The position numbers were made by a program, and so were the translations under genes. Below, piece after piece: positions 10,232 through 49,580 of a stretch of 64,000 nt of DNA. Position 1 is the stretch's first letter; each line of letters opens with the position of its first letter. Source of the DNA: an uncultured Gammaproteobacteria bacterium. GTDB lineage: Bacteria; Pseudomonadota; Gammaproteobacteria; UBA9214. Under the pieces are notes generated by a model. The model did no database searches, had not been told where the DNA came from, and saw only the letters and a list, made by a program, of their open reading frames with translations. The DNA is taken from contig CAVVHS010000005.1 of the NCBI GenBank assembly GCA_963748215.1, positions 40,922-104,921 on the forward strand, read 5' to 3'.

Positions 10232-10477
10232 TTACTGGGCCTGCTGTACCTTCAGCAAATGCGCCACACGATCGGATATCACGGCACCCTGGCTTGCCCA
10301 GTGATCCGCACGTTCGGTATCGATGCGCAAACGCACCTCGCCGCCGGTTGCCACCGGGTTGAAAAATCCGATTCGCTCGATATAGCGTCCGTCCCGGCGA
10401 TTACGGCTATCCGTCACCACGATGTGGTAGAACGGACGCTTCTTGGCGCCGCCACGTGACATTCTGATTGTCACCAT
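10232..10477 (-). CDS. rpsP: 30S ribosomal protein S16
   Basis: Start trimmed to [31 protein letters not shown]. Confidence 0.95.
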
Positions 10478-10891
10478 AAAACCTGTCCTCTGCCTGAAAA
10501 TCCGCCCATGCACCCGCACCTGAAAAATGCGGCTGCTGAAAGCCGGGCAATTCTACGCGAATTCCGGGAAATGTGAAGGGTTGCAGGCAATTAACCCGTG
10601 ACGGTTGCACGTCACCCGGGATCGATCTTCGTCACGTGACACGCCATGTCGGGACACGCTGCCATCGGCTGGACGATCGTCCAGGTTGTCGAGATTGGTT
10701 ACAGTCACTTCACGACGCCATCCCCTGCGGCGCGCAGCCGATTAGTTATTGTTTTCTCGATATTTCTCCCGCGACAGCGGCACGCGCCAAGGCGGCCGGT
10801 CTGTCGGCATTTCTTACGCAGTCGCGCCGGCGCCGGCGCCGCAATTCGGGGCAGCCATCTAACCCATTCTGCTAAATAGGGTTTTCAAGGC

Positions 10892-10907
10892 TGGCACGGC
10901 ATTTGCT
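10892..10907 (+). promoter_or_regulatory. Sigma-54 (-24/-12) promoter
   Basis: TGGCAC-GGCAT-TTGC-T matches the consensus TGGCAC-N5-TTGC(A/T) at every conserved position. It is intergenic and followed by a non-coding unit that ends in a terminator. Confidence 0.65.
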
Positions 10908-10917
10908 TATTTACCAA

Positions 10918-11104
10918 GGCGAGCAAAGAAGAAAAGAACAAGGGGGGGAGGTAGTTCCAACGACACAAGAACAGGAGCTCTCTGCACAACAATTACAAGA
11001 ACCGGCTTGCGCAGTGGTATCTGTACCAGCAGTACAAGAACAACAAATTCGATACCCTTATCGCGCAATGTTTGACGGTGGCCCAGGCCACCGTATTATT
11101 TTGT
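10918..11104 (+). ncRNA. Candidate sigma-54-dependent sRNA with multiple A-rich (AAnAAnAA / ARN) motifs
   Basis: A-rich motifs at 10924-10943 (caaagaagaaaagaacaagg), 10963-10975, 10985-11003 and 11033-11047, with the exact 8-mer ACAAGAAC at 10965, 10995 and 11034. The stem GGTATC (11016-11021) / GATACC (11051-11056) presents the last motif. Ends in an intrinsic terminator. The 5' end is inferred from promoter spacing only. Confidence 0.5.
11076..11104 (+). terminator. Rho-independent terminator of the candidate sRNA
   Basis: Stem cggtggc / gccaccg with loop ccag, followed by tattattttgt. Confidence 0.6.
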
Positions 11105-11120
11105 GCGCCTTCCAGTCTAG

Positions 11121-11248
11121 CTAGCCCGCATTTCTCACCGGGCGGCGGTTATCCGACTCAAATGAACTGAACTATGAAATTAATACTCATTCGGCAATAA
11201 ACAATGTGTCATTGGCCGCTGCCTATCCCGGTGAGACATGCGGGCTAG
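11121..11248. mobile_element. MITE-like ~130-bp element, copy 1 (CTAG-bounded, terminal inverted repeats)
   Basis: The terminal 22-mers ctagcccgcatttctcaccggg and cccggtgagacatgcgggctag are inverted repeats (21/22). The interior 11175-11221 matches the reverse complement of 35922-35968 at 39/47. The right-hand CTAG contains the ffh stop codon. Confidence 0.6.
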
Positions 11249-12597
11249 AACGGCAGGCCCATCGGCCCCTTGCCTTTCATGCCGCGCAGCATCTTGCCCA
11301 TCCCGCCTTTCGACATCTTCTTCATCATTTTCTGCATCTGCAGGTGCTGTTTCAGCAGGCGGTTCACGTCCTGCACCTGGGTGCCGGAACCCGCCGCGAT
11401 GCGACGCCGGCGCGAGCCGTTGATTACACCCGGGAAGCTGCGCTCGTGCGCTGTCATGGAATTGATGATCGCCTTCATGCGATGGACCTGTCCGTCATCG
11501 GCCATGGCGTTTTTCGGCAACTGGCCCATCCCGGGCAGCTTGTCCATCAGGCCGGCGAGCCCGCCCATGTTCAGCATCTGGTCGAGCTGGTCGCGGAAAT
11601 CGTTCAGATCGAAACCCTTGCCCTTGCTGATCTTCTTCGCCAGCTTGGCGACGGCCTCCTTGTCGACCTTCTGCTCGGCCTCCTCGACCAGGCTCAGCAC
11701 GTCGCCCATGCCGAGAATGCGCGAGGCCACGCGGTCGGGATAGAACGGCTCCAGCGCCGCCGTTTTCTCGCCCACGCCGATGAACTTGATCGGCTTGCCG
11801 GTGACCGAGCGAATCGACAGCGCGGCACCGCCACGGGCGTCGCCATCGGTCTTGGTGAGCACCACGCCGGTCAGCGGCAGGACCTCGTTGAAGGTGCGCG
11901 CGGTATTGGCGGCGTCCTGGCCGGTCATGCTGTCGACCACGAACAGTGTCTCCACCGGGTCGATCGCCGCGTGCACGCGGCGGATCTCTTCCATCATCTC
12001 GTCATCGATGTGCAGGCGGCCGGCGGTGTCGACGATCACCACGTCGATGTGCTGCTTGCGCGCATGCGCGACCGCATCGCGGGCGATGGTGACCGGGTCC
12101 TGGTCGGCACGACTCGGGAAGAACACCGCGCCCACCTCGTTCGCCAGCGTCTGCAGCTGGTCGATGGCCGCGGGCCGGTAGATATCGCAACTGGCCAGCA
12201 GTACCGTCTTCTTCTCGCGTGCCATCAGCCTGCGCGCCAGCTTGGCGCTGCTGGTGGTCTTGCCGGAACCCTGCAGGCCGGCCATCAGGATCACCGCGGG
12301 CGGCTGCACGTTCAGATGCAGCGCGTCGTTGGCATCGCCCATCACGTGCACCAGCTCGTCGCTGACCACCTTGACGAGGGTCTGGCCCGGGGTCAGGCTC
12401 TTGAGCACATCCTGGCCAAGGGCGCGCTCGCGCACCCGGTCGATGAACTCTTTCACCACCGGCAGGGCGACATCCGCTTCCAGCAGCGCCATGCGCACGT
12501 CGCGCAGCGCGTCCCGGATATTGTCCTCGCTCAGGCGCCCCTGCCCGCGCAGGTTGCGGATCGTTTTGGAGAGGCGTTCGGATAGATTGTCAAACAT
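11245..12597 (-). CDS. ffh: Signal recognition particle protein Ffh
   Basis: 450 aa. MFDNLSERLSKTIRNLRGQGRLSEDNI, GLQGSGKTT and a Met-rich C-terminal M domain. Confidence 0.97.
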   Translation of the reverse strand: MFDNLSERLSKTIRNLRGQGRLSEDNIRDALRDVRMALLEADVALPVVKEFIDRVRERALGQDVLKSLTPGQTLVKVVSDELVHVMGDANDALHLNVQPPAVILMAGLQGSGKTTSSAKLARRLMAREKKTVLLASCDIYRPAAIDQLQTLANEVGAVFFPSRADQDPVTIARDAVAHARKQHIDVVIVDTAGRLHIDDEMMEEIRRVHAAIDPVETLFVVDSMTGQDAANTARTFNEVLPLTGVVLTKTDGDARGGAALSIRSVTGKPIKFIGVGEKTAALEPFYPDRVASRILGMGDVLSLVEEAEQKVDKEAVAKLAKKISKGKGFDLNDFRDQLDQMLNMGGLAGLMDKLPGMGQLPKNAMADDGQVHRMKAIINSMTAHERSFPGVINGSRRRRIAAGSGTQVQDVNRLLKQHLQMQKMMKKMSKGGMGKMLRGMKGKGPMGLPF

Positions 12598-21884: not shown

Positions 21885-22109
21885 CGTCGGCAGTAGAGTA
21901 CCCGGAACGCCGTACGACGTCATCTCCGTCCGCCGCATGCTTCGGAGTGGACTTTACCGGCGCGCGCGGGTTATAAGCGCTTGAACCCGCCATGCATCTG
22001 CCGGCCTGCACAGCACCGGTTTCATGCCCTGCGACTTCAACCCGATGTGAGGAAACGCTTCATGCACTGCCATTCGACTGACCGTCCCCTGGACGACCTC
22101 CGTACCTGC

Positions 22110-23789
22110 ATGCGCCGCGCCTGCCGCCGACTGGTCCTGATGCTGGCACTCGGCCTGCCGCTCCTGGCGCCGCCGGGTACGGCGACCGCGGCAGACGAGC
22201 CGGCACCGGCCGTCGACACCCAGGTCAGTGAAACCATCAATACCCTGAACTCGCTGCTCGACCTGGAGCGCCAGCTGCGGGATGACATCGAAAAACTGAA
22301 TACTCGCCTGGAGGCGACCCAGGGAACTGCGGAAAAGAAAGAGATCCAGGCACAGCTCGACAAGCTGGACAAGGACCTGCAGACCACGACGAAGAACCTC
22401 AAGGAGATCGCCTCCGGTGCAGACATCACCAGCCTGCGCGCCACCGAGGAGACCAAGTTCGACTTCCAGGCCGAATTGTTTTCGCTGCTGCGTCCGGCGA
22501 TGAAGGAAATGAAGGAGATGACCGTCCATGTCCGGCAGAAATCCGATCTCAAGGACAAGATCGCCTACTACAGCGCCAAGCTGCCGGTCACGGAACGCGC
22601 GGTCGCCAACATCACCCGCCTGCTGCAGGCCACCGACGACGCGGCGCTGGAGAAGAACCTGCAGGGCATGCTGGCGGACTGGAACAAGCAGCTGACCTTC
22701 ATGCAGAGCGAATTGCAGTCGGCCGAGCTGCAGCTGGAAAAGCTGGAGCGTTCGGAGGCGACGCTGGCCGAGGCCTCGCAAAGTTACCTGAAGACATTTT
22801 TCCAGGCACGCGGCCTGTACCTGATCGAGGCACTGCTGGTCATCGTCGGCGTCCTGCTGGTGTCGCGGCTGTCCTACGCTGCCATGGTGCGGCTGATTCC
22901 CGGCTACCGGGCCGAGCATCGCAGCTTCCGCCTGCGGCTGCTGGATCTGCTGCATCGCCTGGCCACCACGGTGCTGGTCATCATCGGCCCGATGGTGGTG
23001 TTCTACCTGGTCGAGGACTGGGTGCTGTTCAGTCTCGGTATCCTGCTGCTCATCGGGCTCGGCCTGACCCTGCGCCATGCCCTGCCGCGCTACTGGCAGC
23101 AGATACAACTGTTTCTCAACATTGGTTCGGTACGCGAGGGGGAGCGCATCGATCTCGACGGCCTGCCCTGGCGGGTCCGGCAGATCAACATCTTCAGCAT
23201 CCTGGAAAACCCGACTGCCGGGATCAGCCAGCGCGTGCGCATCGACAGCCTGGTGGACCTGAAATCGCGGCCGCACCACAAGAATGACCCGTGGTTTCCG
23301 TGTGAGCGCGGTGACTGGGTGCTGCTGAGCGACGAGATGCGCGGCAAGGTCGTGGGCATAACCCAGGAACTGGTCGAGCTGGTGGCGCGTGGTGGCGCGC
23401 ACCGCACCTACCAGACTGGCGATTTCCTGTCGCTGTCACCACTCAACCTGTCGCGCAATTTCCGCCTCAAGGAAACGATCGGCATCAGCTACAAACTGCA
23501 AAAGGACAGCGTGACCACCATACCGGCACTGCTCAGGGCCTTCGTGGCACAACGCATAGAGGAATCGGAATACGCCGGTCAGCTGCTCAATCTGCGTGTC
23601 GAGTTCCAGCAGGCCAACACCTCGTCGCTGGACCTGGTGGTGATCGCCGATTTCGACGGTGCGCTGGCCGATCTGTACAACCGCCTGCGCCGCACGCTAC
23701 AGGGCTGGTGTGTCGAGGCCTGCACGACCCACAACTGGGAGATACCGTTCACCCAGCTGACACTGCACCAGGCCGAGGCCGGCGACTGA
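22110..23789 (+). CDS. Mechanosensitive ion channel (MscS) family protein with an N-terminal periplasmic coiled-coil
   Basis: Signal peptide MRRACRRLVLMLALGLPLLAPPGTATA. Long coiled-coil, TM helices, and an MscS-like beta-domain GDWVLLSDEMRGKVVGITQELVELV. Start uncertain (21981, 22062 or 22110). Confidence 0.6.
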   Translation: MRRACRRLVLMLALGLPLLAPPGTATAADEPAPAVDTQVSETINTLNSLLDLERQLRDDIEKLNTRLEATQGTAEKKEIQAQLDKLDKDLQTTTKNLKEIASGADITSLRATEETKFDFQAELFSLLRPAMKEMKEMTVHVRQKSDLKDKIAYYSAKLPVTERAVANITRLLQATDDAALEKNLQGMLADWNKQLTFMQSELQSAELQLEKLERSEATLAEASQSYLKTFFQARGLYLIEALLVIVGVLLVSRLSYAAMVRLIPGYRAEHRSFRLRLLDLLHRLATTVLVIIGPMVVFYLVEDWVLFSLGILLLIGLGLTLRHALPRYWQQIQLFLNIGSVREGERIDLDGLPWRVRQINIFSILENPTAGISQRVRIDSLVDLKSRPHHKNDPWFPCERGDWVLLSDEMRGKVVGITQELVELVARGGAHRTYQTGDFLSLSPLNLSRNFRLKETIGISYKLQKDSVTTIPALLRAFVAQRIEESEYAGQLLNLRVEFQQANTSSLDLVVIADFDGALADLYNRLRRTLQGWCVEACTTHNWEIPFTQLTLHQAEAGD

Positions 23790-27852: not shown

Positions 27853-28788
27853 TTAATTCCCGCCGCTTCCGCCGCGCTGGAAGCGGCGACGGAAGTCCAG
27901 CCAGGTGTCCAGCAACCCGCCGCCGGCCAGCAACAGACTCGCCTGCGGCAGCAACGCCAGCGCCAGGTACACGGCGACCAGCCAGCCTGTACCCCGTCCG
28001 GCCTGTTTGACCAGGCTGTGTATCACCGCCAGCCCGGTCAGCAGGTAGGGCACCAGCATCACCATGGCCAGCTGCGCGGCCAGGTCACCCGCCGCATCCG
28101 GCACGAAGCGCGCCAGCAACATCATGGCCACTGTCAGCAGCCCGGAGAGGTTTCCCAGCCGCAAGCTGCAGAATTCCTCGCGGAATGCGCCCGGGTGCAC
28201 CAGCAATGACTGCCACCAGCGCGCCAGTAACAGGCTGCCGACGATACCGGTGATCAGTGATGCCACGATCACGCCGGTCATCAGGGCGGCAATCTGTCCG
28301 ACCAGCTCGCTGTCGCCGAGCGACTGCACCTTGATGCCGGCCTCGCCCAGTGTCGTCTCGAATTCCTGCAGCCGGACCACCCACCAGGGCGCCGGGTCGC
28401 CGAAGTAGCCGTACACCGCCAGCATCAGGCAGCCGCCGAACAGCACGGACGCGAGCAGCGCCTGTGACAGCGACCGCGTCTGCCGCAGCACCAGCGCCAG
28501 CATCCAGCACGGCAGCCACAGCAGCAATACCAGCAGCAGGTTCAGCACCACGACCGCGTGCAGGCCGATCAGCTGGTAGAACAGCAGTGTCGCGGCACTC
28601 GCCAGCACCAGCACCTGCAGACCGGGCAGTATGCCGATATGCAAGGTCACCAGCGCAACGGCTGCCGCCGCCAGGTAACTCAGTACCGTGGTGAACGGCA
28701 CCATCAGGTACGTCAATGCACCTGCGGCCGCGGTCACCAGCACGGCCTGCCAGCGCCCTCTGACGATGAGTTCAGCCAGACCCTTCAT
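27853..28788 (-). CDS. Polytopic inner-membrane protein of unknown function (between rpsR and rplI)
   Basis: 311 aa with multiple hydrophobic helices. Same position as the uncharacterised membrane protein in the pseudomonad rpsF-rpsR-x-rplI cluster. Confidence 0.7.
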
Positions 28789-33159: not shown

Positions 33160-33246
33160 GCCGAGGTGGTGAAATTGGTAGACACGCTAGCTTCAGGTGC
33201 TAGTGGGGGAAACCCCGTGGAGGTTCAAGTCCTCTCCTCGGCACCA
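33160..33246 (+). tRNA. tRNA-Leu (anticodon CAG)
   Basis: 87 nt. Acceptor stem GCCGAGG/CCTCGGC; anticodon stem CTAGC/GCTAG with loop TTCAGGT; long variable arm; T-arm GGAGGTTCAAGTCCTCT; encoded CCA. Confidence 0.93.
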
Positions 33247-39691: not shown

Positions 39692-39946
39692 CTAGGCATT
39701 GCCCGGATCGGGCGCGCCCTGTTCGTCGTTGCCGGGAATGCGCACATTGCGCGCCGGTACCACGGTTGAAATAGCGTGCTTGTAAACCATCTGGCTGACG
39801 GCGTTCTTGAGGAGCACGACAAACTGGTCGAATGATTCAATCTGGCCTTGCAGCTTGATGCCGTTTACCAGGTAGATGGATACCGGGACTCGCTCTTTGC
39901 GCAGTGCATTCAGAAATGGATCCTGCAAAGATTGTCCTCTATTCAT
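39692..39946 (-). CDS. hfq: RNA chaperone Hfq
   Basis: [46 protein letters not shown]. Confidence 0.98.
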
Positions 39947-40087
39947 TTCTTTATCTCCTTTTTGTTGTGCTGCCAGCCAGCTTTGGCCACCAGGCCGCTA
40001 ATTTCGCAGAAATATTAGTGGAATAAGCCGTGTAATACCATGATCTGGATCATACCTGTTTTCCCGCCGAAACACAGGGTTGTTTCA

Positions 40088-46548: not shown

Positions 46549-47628
46549 ATGAGCCACCCACCCGCAGCTGACAACCCGATCGATTACGGCGCACTGGCCG
46601 CACAAATCCGGTCCTGGGCCCTTGAGCTCGGCTTTCAGCAGGCCGGTATCGCCGGCATCGAGCTGGCCGCGGACGAGTTGCGCCTGCTCGAGTGGCTGCG
46701 TGCCGGGCATCACGGCGAGATGGACTACATGGCGCGTCACGGGACGCGGCGCAGCCGGCCGGCGGAACTGCTGCCGGGCACACTGCGGGTCATTACGCTG
46801 CGCATGGATTACTGGCCCGGCACGGCCCGCCCCGCCGGGGCGGTGCTCGACGATCCGCAGCGCGGTTATGTGTCGCGCTACGCGCTTGGCCGCGACTACC
46901 ACAAGCTCGTCAGGCAGCGCCTGCAGCGGCTGGCCGACCGCATCAGCGCCGTGACCGGCCCGTTCGGCTACCGCGCCTTCACCGACAGCGCGCCGGTGCT
47001 GGAAAAGCCGCTGGCGCGCAACGCGGGCCTGGGCTGGATCGGCAAGCACACCAACCTGATCAACGAACGCGCCGGCTCCTGGTTCTTTCTCGGCGAGCTG
47101 TATACCGACCTGCCATTACCCATGGACCGGCCCGCGGACGACCACTGCGGCGACTGCCACGCCTGCATCGACGCCTGCCCGACCGGTGCGATCATCGCAC
47201 CCTACACCCTCGATGCGCGGCGCTGCATTTCCTACCTGACTATCGAGCTGCGCGGCCCGATCCCGGAGCCGTTACGCCCGCTGATCGGCAACCGCATCTA
47301 CGGCTGTGATGACTGCCAGCTGGTCTGCCCCTGGAACCGCTTCGCCCGGCCGACCGGCGAACGTGACTTTGCACCGCGGCACGCGCTCGATGCCGGGACA
47401 CTCGTGGAACTGTTCGAATGGAGTGCGCAGGACTTCGACCGGCATACCCGCGGCAGCGCGATTCGTCGTATCGGCCACGATTGCTGGCTGCGCAATATCG
47501 CCGTGGCACTGGGCAACGCGCCCGCCGCGCCGGCGATCATCGCCGCCCTCGAGCGCCGCAGGGCGCACCCTTCCGCCCTGGTGCGCGAACATGTCGAGTG
47601 GGCGTTAGGCCGTCACGACAGCGCGTGA
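46549..47628 (+). CDS. queG: Epoxyqueuosine reductase
   Basis: 359 aa. Two 4Fe-4S motifs, CGDCHACIDACP and CDDCQLVCPWN, and a HEAT-like C-terminus. Confidence 0.93.
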   Translation: MSHPPAADNPIDYGALAAQIRSWALELGFQQAGIAGIELAADELRLLEWLRAGHHGEMDYMARHGTRRSRPAELLPGTLRVITLRMDYWPGTARPAGAVLDDPQRGYVSRYALGRDYHKLVRQRLQRLADRISAVTGPFGYRAFTDSAPVLEKPLARNAGLGWIGKHTNLINERAGSWFFLGELYTDLPLPMDRPADDHCGDCHACIDACPTGAIIAPYTLDARRCISYLTIELRGPIPEPLRPLIGNRIYGCDDCQLVCPWNRFARPTGERDFAPRHALDAGTLVELFEWSAQDFDRHTRGSAIRRIGHDCWLRNIAVALGNAPAAPAIIAALERRRAHPSALVREHVEWALGRHDSA

Positions 47629-49580
47629 TGGCGGCACCCGCGGTGCCGGCGCGCGAGAAAGACCAGCGCCGCGAGCATCAGCCCGGGTAACAGGGGATCG
47701 ATCCGGCCCGCACTCCCCAGGCTGCAGCCGCCGCCACCAGCACTCGCAGCCAAGGGCGCAGCCGGAGGCGCCGCGACCGGCACGGTCACGACCCGGCTGT
47801 CGCTCGCCAGCGTCTCGGCGGTGGGTGGATTGTTCTGGTACAGCGCCTTGAAATCGATCACCCGCGCGTTGTTGCTGCTCAGGCCCAGGACGAAGCCGGG
47901 GCGGATCGTCTGGAACAGCAGCTCCGCATCGACGGTATATGGCCCGTTCGCGCCGCCTGTCGGGACACGGTAATGGACGGTGTCGGAGCCGGTGCCCTCC
48001 ACCGGCCCGGCCAGGTTGAAATCGTTGTCGCCGGCAGTGCCAACCGGCAGCGTCTGCGGTTCGATCGCATTCGCCATGGCCGTGGTGAACCCTTCCGGCG
48101 GCAGGCGGTTGTCCTTCAGATACGCTTCGGCGTACAGCACGATATAGGTGATGTCGGCATTGGTATCACCCAGCACGGCTTCGTACACCGCGACCTGTGA
48201 CGCATTGTCGATGACATCGCGATGCGGCTCGTAGCAGGCACTGCTGTCGAAATTCTGCGGCTTGGTCGCCGCCAGGCATCCCGCCGCCAGGTGCGCGGCA
48301 TCGGTGGTGATGCGGCCATTGGCATCGACCGCGCCCGACTCGAAAATGACCTGGTTGGCCGCATCCCTCACCGTCAGGTGTATCCAGGCGCGTCGACTGG
48401 GAAAGCCGCTCGGAAACTTGTGACCGGTGCGGTTGGTGATTTGCACATCGATAGCCAGCTCGTTATTGGCAATGTTCGCCGCATTGATCACCAGGTCGGC
48501 CGTTGCCGTCTGCAGCAGGTTGCGGGTCACGGCGATCTGCGCATCGAACCCGGCCACGGTGGTGCTGGCGTCGATACCCAGCTGCACACGATTGTCCCGT
48601 AGCAGCTCGAGCAGGTAGGTGTTGCCACCGGCAAGGATATGGCTGAAGTACGGACTGCGCACCGGCCAGTTTTCGTTGACCGCGCCATTCGGCTGGACAC
48701 TGATGCGGGTACTGTACAGACCGGGATCCGGCTCGGGCATGTGGCAGCCCTGGCATTCCTGCGCCTTGGCCGCACCCGTGGTGTAGACGCTGTTTTGCCA
48801 TTCGAGGAACGCGCCCTGCTCCAGAAAATCATTGCCCGTGGCGGTATCGGTATTGATGTCCACGACCGGTGTATACAGGGTGTGGCAGGTGGCACAGTGG
48901 CCGGATCCGGTCACCTGCTGGCCGAACTGCGGCGTGTAGCCGGTGTTGTTGAACATGACATTTGCGCCACCCGGGTGGGGGTTTTGATACGGCCCGTAAA
49001 TGGTCATGGCATCCGCGTCGCCGGGCGCCGGGATCTGGAAGCCACCTGTGAAAGATGCCGCGGTGCCGAGGCCGGCGTCCCTGACCTGGTGACAGAGCGT
49101 GCAGCTGACCCCTTCCCGCGCGGGGTCCTGCGCCTCGGCCGTCGCCAGCCGGTAGCAGCCATCGTTCAGCGTGCAGCTGGCATCCTGGGTCAGATCGACG
49201 CCGGCCATGTGGGCATGCGTGCGGGCCATGGGCGTATGGCAGGTCAGGCACTTGTCCTCGATAAACCCGGCCAGCGCCGGCAGCACGGCAGCCTCGTCTT
49301 CAACGGCGGCACGGAAATAGGGATCATCCAGGGCATGCGCCATGACGCTGTGCTGCCACTGGCTCGGCGGGCTGACATCCGCGCCGCTGTCGGATGCGGG
49401 ATAGCGCATCACGGGAGAAATATTAACGTCCTGATCGCTGCTGGCGCGATGGCAGCGGGCGCAGTTGCTTGCGGCGCTGAACACACCGAGCGTGCCCCAG
49501 TCGGGATCGAACGGCACGGCCTGTACGCCGGTGGCGCAAGCCGCGAGCATGATGACGACCAGCCCGTTGAATGTGTGCAT
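47613..49580 (-). CDS. Secreted pentaheme c-type cytochrome with a C-terminal Gly-rich/Cys + TM + basic sorting-signal-like tail
   Basis: 655 aa. AGGAGG RBS and signal peptide MHTFNGLVVIMLAACATGVQA. Five CxxCH motifs (CARCH, CLTCH, CTLCH, CATCH, CQGCH). C-terminus SAGGGGCSLGSAGRIDPLLPGLMLAALVFLARRHR. Confidence 0.85.
   Translation of the reverse strand: MHTFNGLVVIMLAACATGVQAVPFDPDWGTLGVFSAASNCARCHRASSDQDVNISPVMRYPASDSGADVSPPSQWQHSVMAHALDDPYFRAAVEDEAAVLPALAGFIEDKCLTCHTPMARTHAHMAGVDLTQDASCTLNDGCYRLATAEAQDPAREGVSCTLCHQVRDAGLGTAASFTGGFQIPAPGDADAMTIYGPYQNPHPGGANVMFNNTGYTPQFGQQVTGSGHCATCHTLYTPVVDINTDTATGNDFLEQGAFLEWQNSVYTTGAAKAQECQGCHMPEPDPGLYSTRISVQPNGAVNENWPVRSPYFSHILAGGNTYLLELLRDNRVQLGIDASTTVAGFDAQIAVTRNLLQTATADLVINAANIANNELAIDVQITNRTGHKFPSGFPSRRAWIHLTVRDAANQVIFESGAVDANGRITTDAAHLAAGCLAATKPQNFDSSACYEPHRDVIDNASQVAVYEAVLGDTNADITYIVLYAEAYLKDNRLPPEGFTTAMANAIEPQTLPVGTAGDNDFNLAGPVEGTGSDTVHYRVPTGGANGPYTVDAELLFQTIRPGFVLGLSSNNARVIDFKALYQNNPPTAETLASDSRVVTVPVAAPPAAPLAASAGGGGCSLGSAGRIDPLLPGLMLAALVFLARRHRGCRHHALS

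Follow-up and report, generated by a model that had tools for sequence, protein, structure and literature searches.

A predicted sigma-54-dependent small RNA family between ffh and rpsP in uncultured Gammaproteobacteria, with CrcZ-like competition for Hfq as a tentative mode of action

We analyzed a 64-kb stretch of DNA from an uncultured sediment gammaproteobacterium (hereafter, the window) and found, between rpsP and ffh, what is probably a member of a new family of sigma-54-dependent small RNAs (sRNAs), absent from Rfam, that bind Hfq. Judging from conservation across genomes, the locus very likely holds a real sigma-54-dependent non-coding RNA gene. Binding of the RNA to Hfq is a reading that we favor with moderate confidence, and titration of Hfq as its main mode of action is a tentative proposal. 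The case for the unit rests on the comparison of genomes rather than on the statistics of chance matches within the window.

The unit in the ffh–rpsP spacer and its relatives

The spacer between rpsP and ffh is 767 bp long (10478-11244). Both genes have Pfam matches, which also confirm the flanking genes rimM, trmD, rplS, a cytochrome c assembly protein, and a CorC/CNNM transporter. The sRNA unit (10892-11104) is on the plus strand and both neighbors are on the minus strand; thus, it converges with ffh and diverges from rpsP. No plus-strand gene is found downstream of the unit, so that there is no gene for it to lead. A profile search finds a single copy of the RNA in the 64 kb of the window. 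The features are:

10232-10477, minus strand: rpsP (Pfam)
10687-10702, plus strand: distal activator-site candidate TGTCGAGATTGGTTAC, with the family motif; distal copies read TGT-N11-ACA
10802-10817, plus strand: proximal activator-site candidate TGTCGGCATTTCTTAC, with the family motif
10892-10907, plus strand: predicted sigma-54 (-24/-12) promoter TGGCACGGCATTTGCT, a perfect TGGCAC-N5-TTGC
10918-11103, plus strand: non-coding RNA body of ~186 nt (nhmmer E=2.6e-38; covariance model 154 bits)
10925-10941, plus strand: A-rich module 1, AAAGAAGAAAAGAACAA, with two AAnAAnAA motifs; predicted unpaired, position kept in subfamilies A and B
10942-10951, plus strand: G-rich, Shine-Dalgarno-like box (G-box) GGGGGGGAGG; in the family GGNGGRG, at least GGAG
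10963-10986, plus strand: A-rich module 2, ACACAAGAACAGG, joined to a GAGCUC-N2-UGCA block conserved in the alignments
10987-11003, plus strand: A-rich module 3, CAACAAUUACAAGAACC, predicted unpaired
11007-11068, plus strand: predicted long-range helix, UUGCGC (11007-11012) with GCGCAA (11063-11068) and GGUAUC (11016-11021) with GAUACC (11051-11056)
11034-11047, plus strand: A-rich module 4, ACAAGAACAACAAA, inside the long-range helix
11075-11104, plus strand: predicted intrinsic terminator ACGGUGGC-CCAG-GCCACCGU with a U-rich tail; 8-bp G+C-rich stem at 11075-11094
11245-12597, minus strand: ffh (Pfam)
39692-39946, minus strand: hfq, in the same window

The rest of the window is occupied by housekeeping genes, including htpG, radA, alr, dnaB, rnr, purA, hisZ, hflCKX-hfq-miaA, mutL, amiC, der, bamB, and hisS, and by one tRNA gene (33160-33243). 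Three long minus-strand ORFs (21954-23402, 27853-28788, and 47613-49580) have no Pfam match at 1e-5; they may be uncharacterized genes or wrong-strand artifacts of high G+C content.

A search of species-representative genomes with Ffh returned at least 80 loci. Among the matches listed, only the two closest have a sigma-54 consensus immediately 3' of ffh and in the same relative orientation: an Ectothiorhodospiraceae metagenome-assembled genome (MAG; L001, Ffh 82% identical to that of the window) and a Gammaproteobacteria MAG (L002, 84%). When these two loci are aligned with the window, the promoter and the 5' and 3' ends are conserved, and the indels are not multiples of three. Scanning of metagenome contigs with a pattern from the 3' end alone, by which the promoter is not preselected, yielded 26 loci, all between ffh and rpsP on the opposite strand and with Ffh 80-97% identical. 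TGG[CT][AG][CT]-N5-TTGC is found 199-237 nt before the terminator end in 23/23 of these loci with enough upstream DNA, the remaining three being cut off by a contig end. Because the pattern fixed some 3' bases, loci were also fetched through four Ffh proteins (83-87% identical to that of the window). This yielded six loci, all with the element, promoter, and upstream motifs, and with more diverged 3' regions. Six loci reached solely through Ffh (L001, L002, L107, L108, L109, and L111) reduce the ascertainment bias of the 3' pattern.

In total, the metagenome assemblies and MAGs provided 27 distinct homologous sequences from uncultured Gammaproteobacteria (Ffh 80-97% identical), all at the same position; the contigs came from sediment and seep samples. 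Synteny and strand are identical in the 28 loci first found and in the six fetched through the four Ffh proteins, and the neighbors are ffh and rpsP-rimM-trmD-rplS in every locus. In contrast, the family profile matches nothing in 78 listed loci with Ffh at most 73% identical, so the family appears to be confined to one clade of uncultured Gammaproteobacteria, with a boundary that is approximate among the matches listed. Second copies or paralogs were found neither in these 78 loci nor in the window. By eye, the sequences fall into subfamilies A (the window, L082, L089, L092, L100, L087, and L106), B (L001, L081, L084, L088, and similar ones), and C (L002, L083, L094, L096, L097, and L102).

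Within subfamily A, identity to the window is concentrated in islands. The rpsP promoter with its leader forms one (0.76-0.95) and the distal site another (0.6-0.7); the proximal site stands out at 0.88 amid a diverged spacer, and the sigma-54 promoter with the whole RNA is at 0.6-0.92. Identity falls from 0.92 to ~0.2 right after 11104, that is, past the T-run. The first of these islands (region 10538-10597) includes a sigma-70-like rpsP promoter, TTCACA-16-TAGAAT (10577-10550, minus strand), and the leader start, conserved at 0.76-0.95 among relatives; the distal activator-site candidate is located ~110 bp upstream of this promoter.

Sigma-54 promoter and candidate activator sites

The element TGGCACGGCATTTGCT is the sole perfect TGGCAC-N5-TTGC in 64 kb. 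Chance alone would yield 0.28 such matches, and at least one is present in 22% of shuffled windows, so the match by itself is weak. Among homologues, GG-N10-GC in a near-consensus context is kept in all 27 complete sequences, 23 of them found by the 3' end alone and four by Ffh alone, with the variants TGGCAT, TGGCGC, and TGGTAC. The predicted transcription start is at ~10917-10919, and matches to the profile and to the covariance model begin at 10917/10918.

Upstream of the promoter the family has two same-orientation copies of a 16-bp motif, TGTCGR-N2-TT-N2-TTAC, lying about 115 and about 230 bp upstream of the predicted start. The motif is read from matches to the relaxed pattern TGTC[GA]-N7-TTAC, of which each of the 25 loci scored contains two. 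The proximal copy begins ~90 bp before TGGCAC in 25/25 loci scored, a distance fixed within 1 bp, and the same holds, again within 1 bp, for four further loci found through Ffh. The distal copy, by the relaxed pattern, is present in 26/27 loci with enough upstream DNA and is missing only in L087. The copies are ~113-128 bp apart, with two spacing classes, 113-118 and 126-127 bp, that differ by one helical turn. The strict motif recovers both copies in most loci; it finds a single copy in L087 and L108 and misses L109/L110 altogether. The relaxed pattern detects the two copies in L108 and L109/L110 alike. With at most one mismatch allowed, these are the only two copies in the window (0.10 expected), and in the 810 kb examined the strict motif was found solely upstream of this element.

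Conserved candidate activator sites with constrained phasing are present ~100-250 bp upstream. Together with the predicted sigma-54 promoter, the two phased copies form the layout expected for a bacterial enhancer-binding protein. Genes for such a protein (GAFTGA/Walker-A signature) and rpoN were found neither in the window nor in any family locus examined. In organisms known solely from metagenomes, these two phased, invariant candidate sites offer a direct way to search for the activator and, through it, the signal.

Distal copies, in the window (10685-10705) and in L001, L002, L083, L094, L097, L102, and other loci, often extend to NNTGT-N11-ACANN. Their flanks are complementary and differ by locus (GATGT..ACATC, GGTGT..ACACC, GTTGT..ACAAC, TCTGT..ACAGA), which looks like covariation in a DNA site.

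Structure and motifs of the RNA

The terminator stem (11075-11094) is followed by ATTATTTTGT. Terminator tails in the family carry 4-8 U, and that of the window is interrupted (UAUUAUUUUG). The stem ACGGUGGC/GCCACCGU is invariant in 27/27 distinct members, including those found through Ffh only, for which it was not used as a pattern; terminator stems usually drift by compensatory change. The distance between the terminator and ffh varies across loci from 4 to ~140 nt. In L108, the sRNA match and the terminator end 4 nt from the ffh stop, and the hairpin may therefore also serve the convergent ffh transcript.

The predicted long-range helix encloses A-rich module 4 and in the family consists of UUGCGC/GCGCAG plus (C)GG/CC(G). 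In a covariance-model alignment of the 27 distinct sequences 94.3% of its cells are paired, compared with 30-58% for slid partners. Compensatory changes are observed at three pairs, including a change of C:G to U:A in L108, and the support for the helix is only modest because most pairs never vary. For the 5' half no common fold was obtained, as RNAalifold and single-sequence folds disagree between subfamilies. The folds common to all subfamilies are the long-range helix and the terminator only, and all members share five elements: the G-box, CAUUGC, the long-range helix, an A/U-rich spacer, and the terminator.

Apart from structural elements, the only blocks that every member conserves are the G-box and CAUUGC, neither of which is A-rich. 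The G-box contains G columns that vary little or not at all in any subfamily and also reads GGAGG(U); inspection of the alignments by eye revealed no start codon after it in any member. CAUUGC is common to all subfamilies and has the version CUCUGC in the window.

The A-rich modules occupy four conserved positions, vary in sequence, and are predicted to be unpaired. In the window, AAnAAnAA occurs 16 times against 4.7 expected, and the only four occurrences on the plus strand are all inside the unit. Against dinucleotide shuffles, the RNA of the window (four AAnAAnAA, five ARN runs of n≥3, and three of n≥4) has P≤0.003, and the family as a whole contains 51 AAnAAnAA (8.5 +/- 3.2 expected, an approximately sixfold enrichment) and 87 ARN runs of n≥3 (32.8 +/- 4.8 expected), statistics that overstate significance since the sequences are related. 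The octamer ACAAGAAC occurs exactly three times in the window (10965, 10995, and 11034), within 77 nt, with 0.73 expected per 64 kb; this exact triplication is peculiar to the window's own lineage. The six sequences of subfamily C have 0-1 AAnAAnAA, the same as shuffles, and keep every other feature.

The ORF at 10903-11124 (73 aa) starts with a TTG that lies within the promoter, and Pfam has no match to it. It is broken in L089, the closest relative (Ffh 97% identical), where no plus-strand ORF is longer than 31 aa. Across the family no ORF is conserved in any frame or strand, and the indels are not multiples of three.

These observations bear on an initial annotation of the window, which had proposed a non-coding unit in a 767-bp ffh/rpsP gap, running from a sigma-54 promoter at 10892-10907 to a hairpin with a T-run and including the stem arms GGTATC (11016-11021) and GATACC (11051-11056). 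The gap is confirmed at 10478-11244, promoter and arms are where they had been placed, the hairpin has an 8-bp stem (11075-11094), and the non-coding nature of the unit is upheld by the lack of a conserved ORF. The annotated hfq (39692-39946) is indeed present, on the minus strand, and encodes a canonical Hfq. The claim that the unit is packed with AAnAAnAA/ARN motifs stands in part, as these are enriched and predicted to be unpaired; it does not extend to subfamily C, and the octamer repeat on which it drew is lineage-specific.

Possible modes of action and comparison with known systems

The best explanation of these data, which we put forward with due reserve, is a sigma-54-dependent sRNA of ~186 nt whose leading candidate mechanism is CrcZ-like competition for the Hfq distal face. 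The gene would be turned on via sigma-54 by an enhancer-binding activator that answers a signal. On Hfq, the proximal face would be occupied by the terminator hairpin with its U-tail and the distal face by three to five unpaired (ARN)n/AAnAAnAA modules. The RNA would thus compete for the distal face, being CrcZ-like in mechanism and not in ancestry, and A-rich mRNAs would thereby be freed from Hfq-dependent repression. A second, sequence-specific contact would come from the G-box and CAUUGC, both of them conserved. Competition is placed in the lead because several distal-face sites would be carried by one short, strongly inducible RNA. The Hfq of the window has Y25, G29, I30, K31, and K56; its distal-face residues are canonical, and its core is nearly identical to that of E. 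coli Hfq. The RNA is half the size of CrcZ, which counts against titration.

The hfq leader (39947-39975, minus strand), just upstream of the start at 39946, reads ACAACAAAAAGGAGAUAAAGAAAUG. Here, the gene's own Shine-Dalgarno sequence lies between A-rich ARN-type stretches, one AAnAAnAA (39959-39966) among them, and Hfq autoregulation could take place at this site.

The same features may also be explained by a sigma-54- and Hfq-dependent class II sRNA that acts by base pairing, its A-rich modules and U-tail only anchoring Hfq and its G-box (GGNGGRG) and/or CAUUGC(A) serving as seeds for specific mRNAs or another sRNA. This is a plausible reading, if a somewhat doubtful one. Most Hfq-bound sRNAs act by base pairing, and ARN motifs combined with a terminator and U-tail fit class II; none of the non-structural blocks common to the three subfamilies is A-rich, and subfamily C retains the G-box and CAUUGC while losing most AAnAAnAA. 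However, three to five separate ARN modules exceed the needs of anchoring, the candidate seeds are partly paired (predicted unpaired probability 0.2-0.6), a G-rich Shine-Dalgarno-like seed would be atypical, and in the 64-kb window no target complementary to GAGCUCAUUGCA or to the G-box stands out above chance, a weak test given that the window is only ~1-2% of a genome. Competition for Hfq is ranked slightly higher because of how many A-rich modules there are, where they sit, and how accessible they are predicted to be. Base pairing follows closely because it is the usual mode of Hfq-bound sRNAs, because subfamily C keeps everything except the motifs, and because titration leaves the G-box and CAUUGC unexplained.

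The conserved Shine-Dalgarno-like GGAGG(U) box, with no start codon seen after it and with one GGA inside, would also suit an RNA that sequesters or partners another factor (CsrA/RsmA by way of GGA, or the 30S subunit by way of the orphan box), the A-richness being incidental. We consider this improbable, as the triplet periodicity of the A-rich motifs exceeds that of dinucleotide shuffles. Csr/Rsm sponges carry many GGA; here the mean is 1.7 in each RNA, and A-N-GGA hardly occurs, which makes a CsrB/RsmZ-type sponge of CsrA unlikely. The constant orientation of the unit, always converging with ffh and diverging from rpsP, is compatible with a cis-acting role in which the RNA is a by-product, for instance of convergent transcription or antisense read-through into the 3' end of ffh, of a terminator shared with ffh, or of activator binding with an additional effect on the divergent rpsP operon. 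The oddly invariant terminator stem, its proximity to the ffh stop in L108, and the location of the distal site ~110 bp from the conserved rpsP promoter point in the same direction. Yet a by-product would not need an RNA body conserved over its full length, structured and motif-bearing; the terminator is strong, and its distance to ffh varies. Conservation of the entire RNA fits poorly with a role in cis alone, to which we give little credence. Finally, the 73-aa Q/E-rich ORF or another ORF might encode a small protein. Apart from the existence of ORF 10903-11124, everything speaks against it: the start within the promoter, the lack of a Pfam match, the 31-aa limit in L089, and the absence of a conserved frame on either strand, with indels not in threes. 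From these sequence comparisons, a small protein is excluded for practical purposes.

To our knowledge, Hfq-titrating RNA decoys have so far been a specialty of Pseudomonadaceae. A stronger version of the preferred reading, competition for Hfq, is that a CrcZ-type decoy arose independently outside this family, its activator acting through the new motif TGTCGR-N2-TT-N2-TTAC; we regard this combination as rather unlikely. If a non-homologous Hfq decoy does exist elsewhere, the solution is convergent and provides a second system for study, and direct Hfq-mediated translational repression relieved by a decoy is wider among environmental Gammaproteobacteria than the Pseudomonas paradigm of catabolite repression suggests. 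Independent of the mode of action, the unit defines a cleanly delimited sigma-54-dependent sRNA family that is missing from Rfam.

Searches against Rfam revealed no sRNA match, whether by cmscan of the whole window at the gathering score or of 10400-11300 at E≤10, and five homologous loci at E≤1 gave chance matches only, far below the gathering score. CrcZ, Qrr, GlmY, NrsZ, and other Rfam families were rejected on this basis. Thus, the element is not a member of the CrcZ/CrcY family. Qrr/LuxO, GlmY/GlrR, and NrsZ/NtrC exemplify stand-alone sRNA genes with a -24/-12 promoter and an enhancer-binding protein answering a physiological signal. The element resembles Qrr, GlmY, and NrsZ in being a stand-alone sRNA gene with such a promoter, and differs in its activator motif, locus, and taxon, and in matching no Rfam family.

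In class II Hfq sRNAs such as ChiX, MgrR, and CyaR, ARN motifs engage the distal face and a Rho-independent terminator with its U-tail engages the proximal face; these sRNAs are transcribed from sigma-70-type promoters, typically contain one or two stretches of ARN, and pair through defined seeds. The element is similar in its terminator with a U-tail and upstream ARN motifs, and dissimilar in its sigma-54 promoter and three to five ARN modules.

The candidate activator sites were compared with known boxes. NifA sites read TGT-N10-ACA, and the NifA, TyrR, and GcsR boxes are alike in style only, with a different spacing and left arm. The TyrR box is TGTAAA-N6-TTTACA and the GcsR site is TGTAACG-N4-CGTTCCG (PMC4894688). 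As in TyrR-family sites, the copies are in tandem, ~17-18 bp long, start with TGT and end with TTAC(A/G), the distal ones forming TGT...ACA dyads. In contrast to them, the site is 1 bp shorter (TGT-N11-ACA versus N12), its left arm is TGTCGR and not TGTAAA, and the two copies are well apart (~115-127 bp) instead of adjacent. The likeness to TyrR/GcsR sites is a resemblance only, not a match. A CbrB site was rejected, since the conserved motif TGTCGR-N2-TT-N2-TTAC shares only the TTAC tetramer with the CbrB subsites TGTTAC/GTAACA (PMC6296734).

From CrcZ, CrcY, and CrcX the element differs in several respects. It has no sequence or structure similarity to them, is ~186 nt long compared with about 400 for CrcZ, and has ffh and rpsP as neighbors in place of the cbrB that adjoins genes of the CrcZ family. 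It has an extra conserved G-box, and one of its subfamilies largely lacks A-rich motifs. Its host is an uncultured non-pseudomonad, while CrcZ, CrcY, and CrcX are found in Pseudomonadaceae; the different locus and host had been anticipated in the initial annotation. CbrAB is described as exclusive to Pseudomonadaceae (PMC6296734, PMC8871633). CrcZ binds the distal face of Hfq, and its binding is abolished by Y25D (PMC4063720). Of the CrcZ-like Hfq sponge that had been proposed, the motif logic, the promoter class, and the presence of an encoded Hfq stand; the element is not a relative of CrcZ/CrcY, and the motifs are not general, given the motif-poor subfamily C. What the element shares with CrcZ, CrcY, and CrcX is a predicted sigma-54 promoter with upstream activator sites (here, candidate sites), several AAnAAnAA/(ARN)n motifs predicted to be unpaired, a non-coding body, and an intrinsic terminator. 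The density of motifs is like that of CrcZ in the subfamily of the window and in one other, the third being largely without them: the window has three ARN runs of n≥4 in ~160 nt, and CrcZ has six in 407 nt (PMC4063720).
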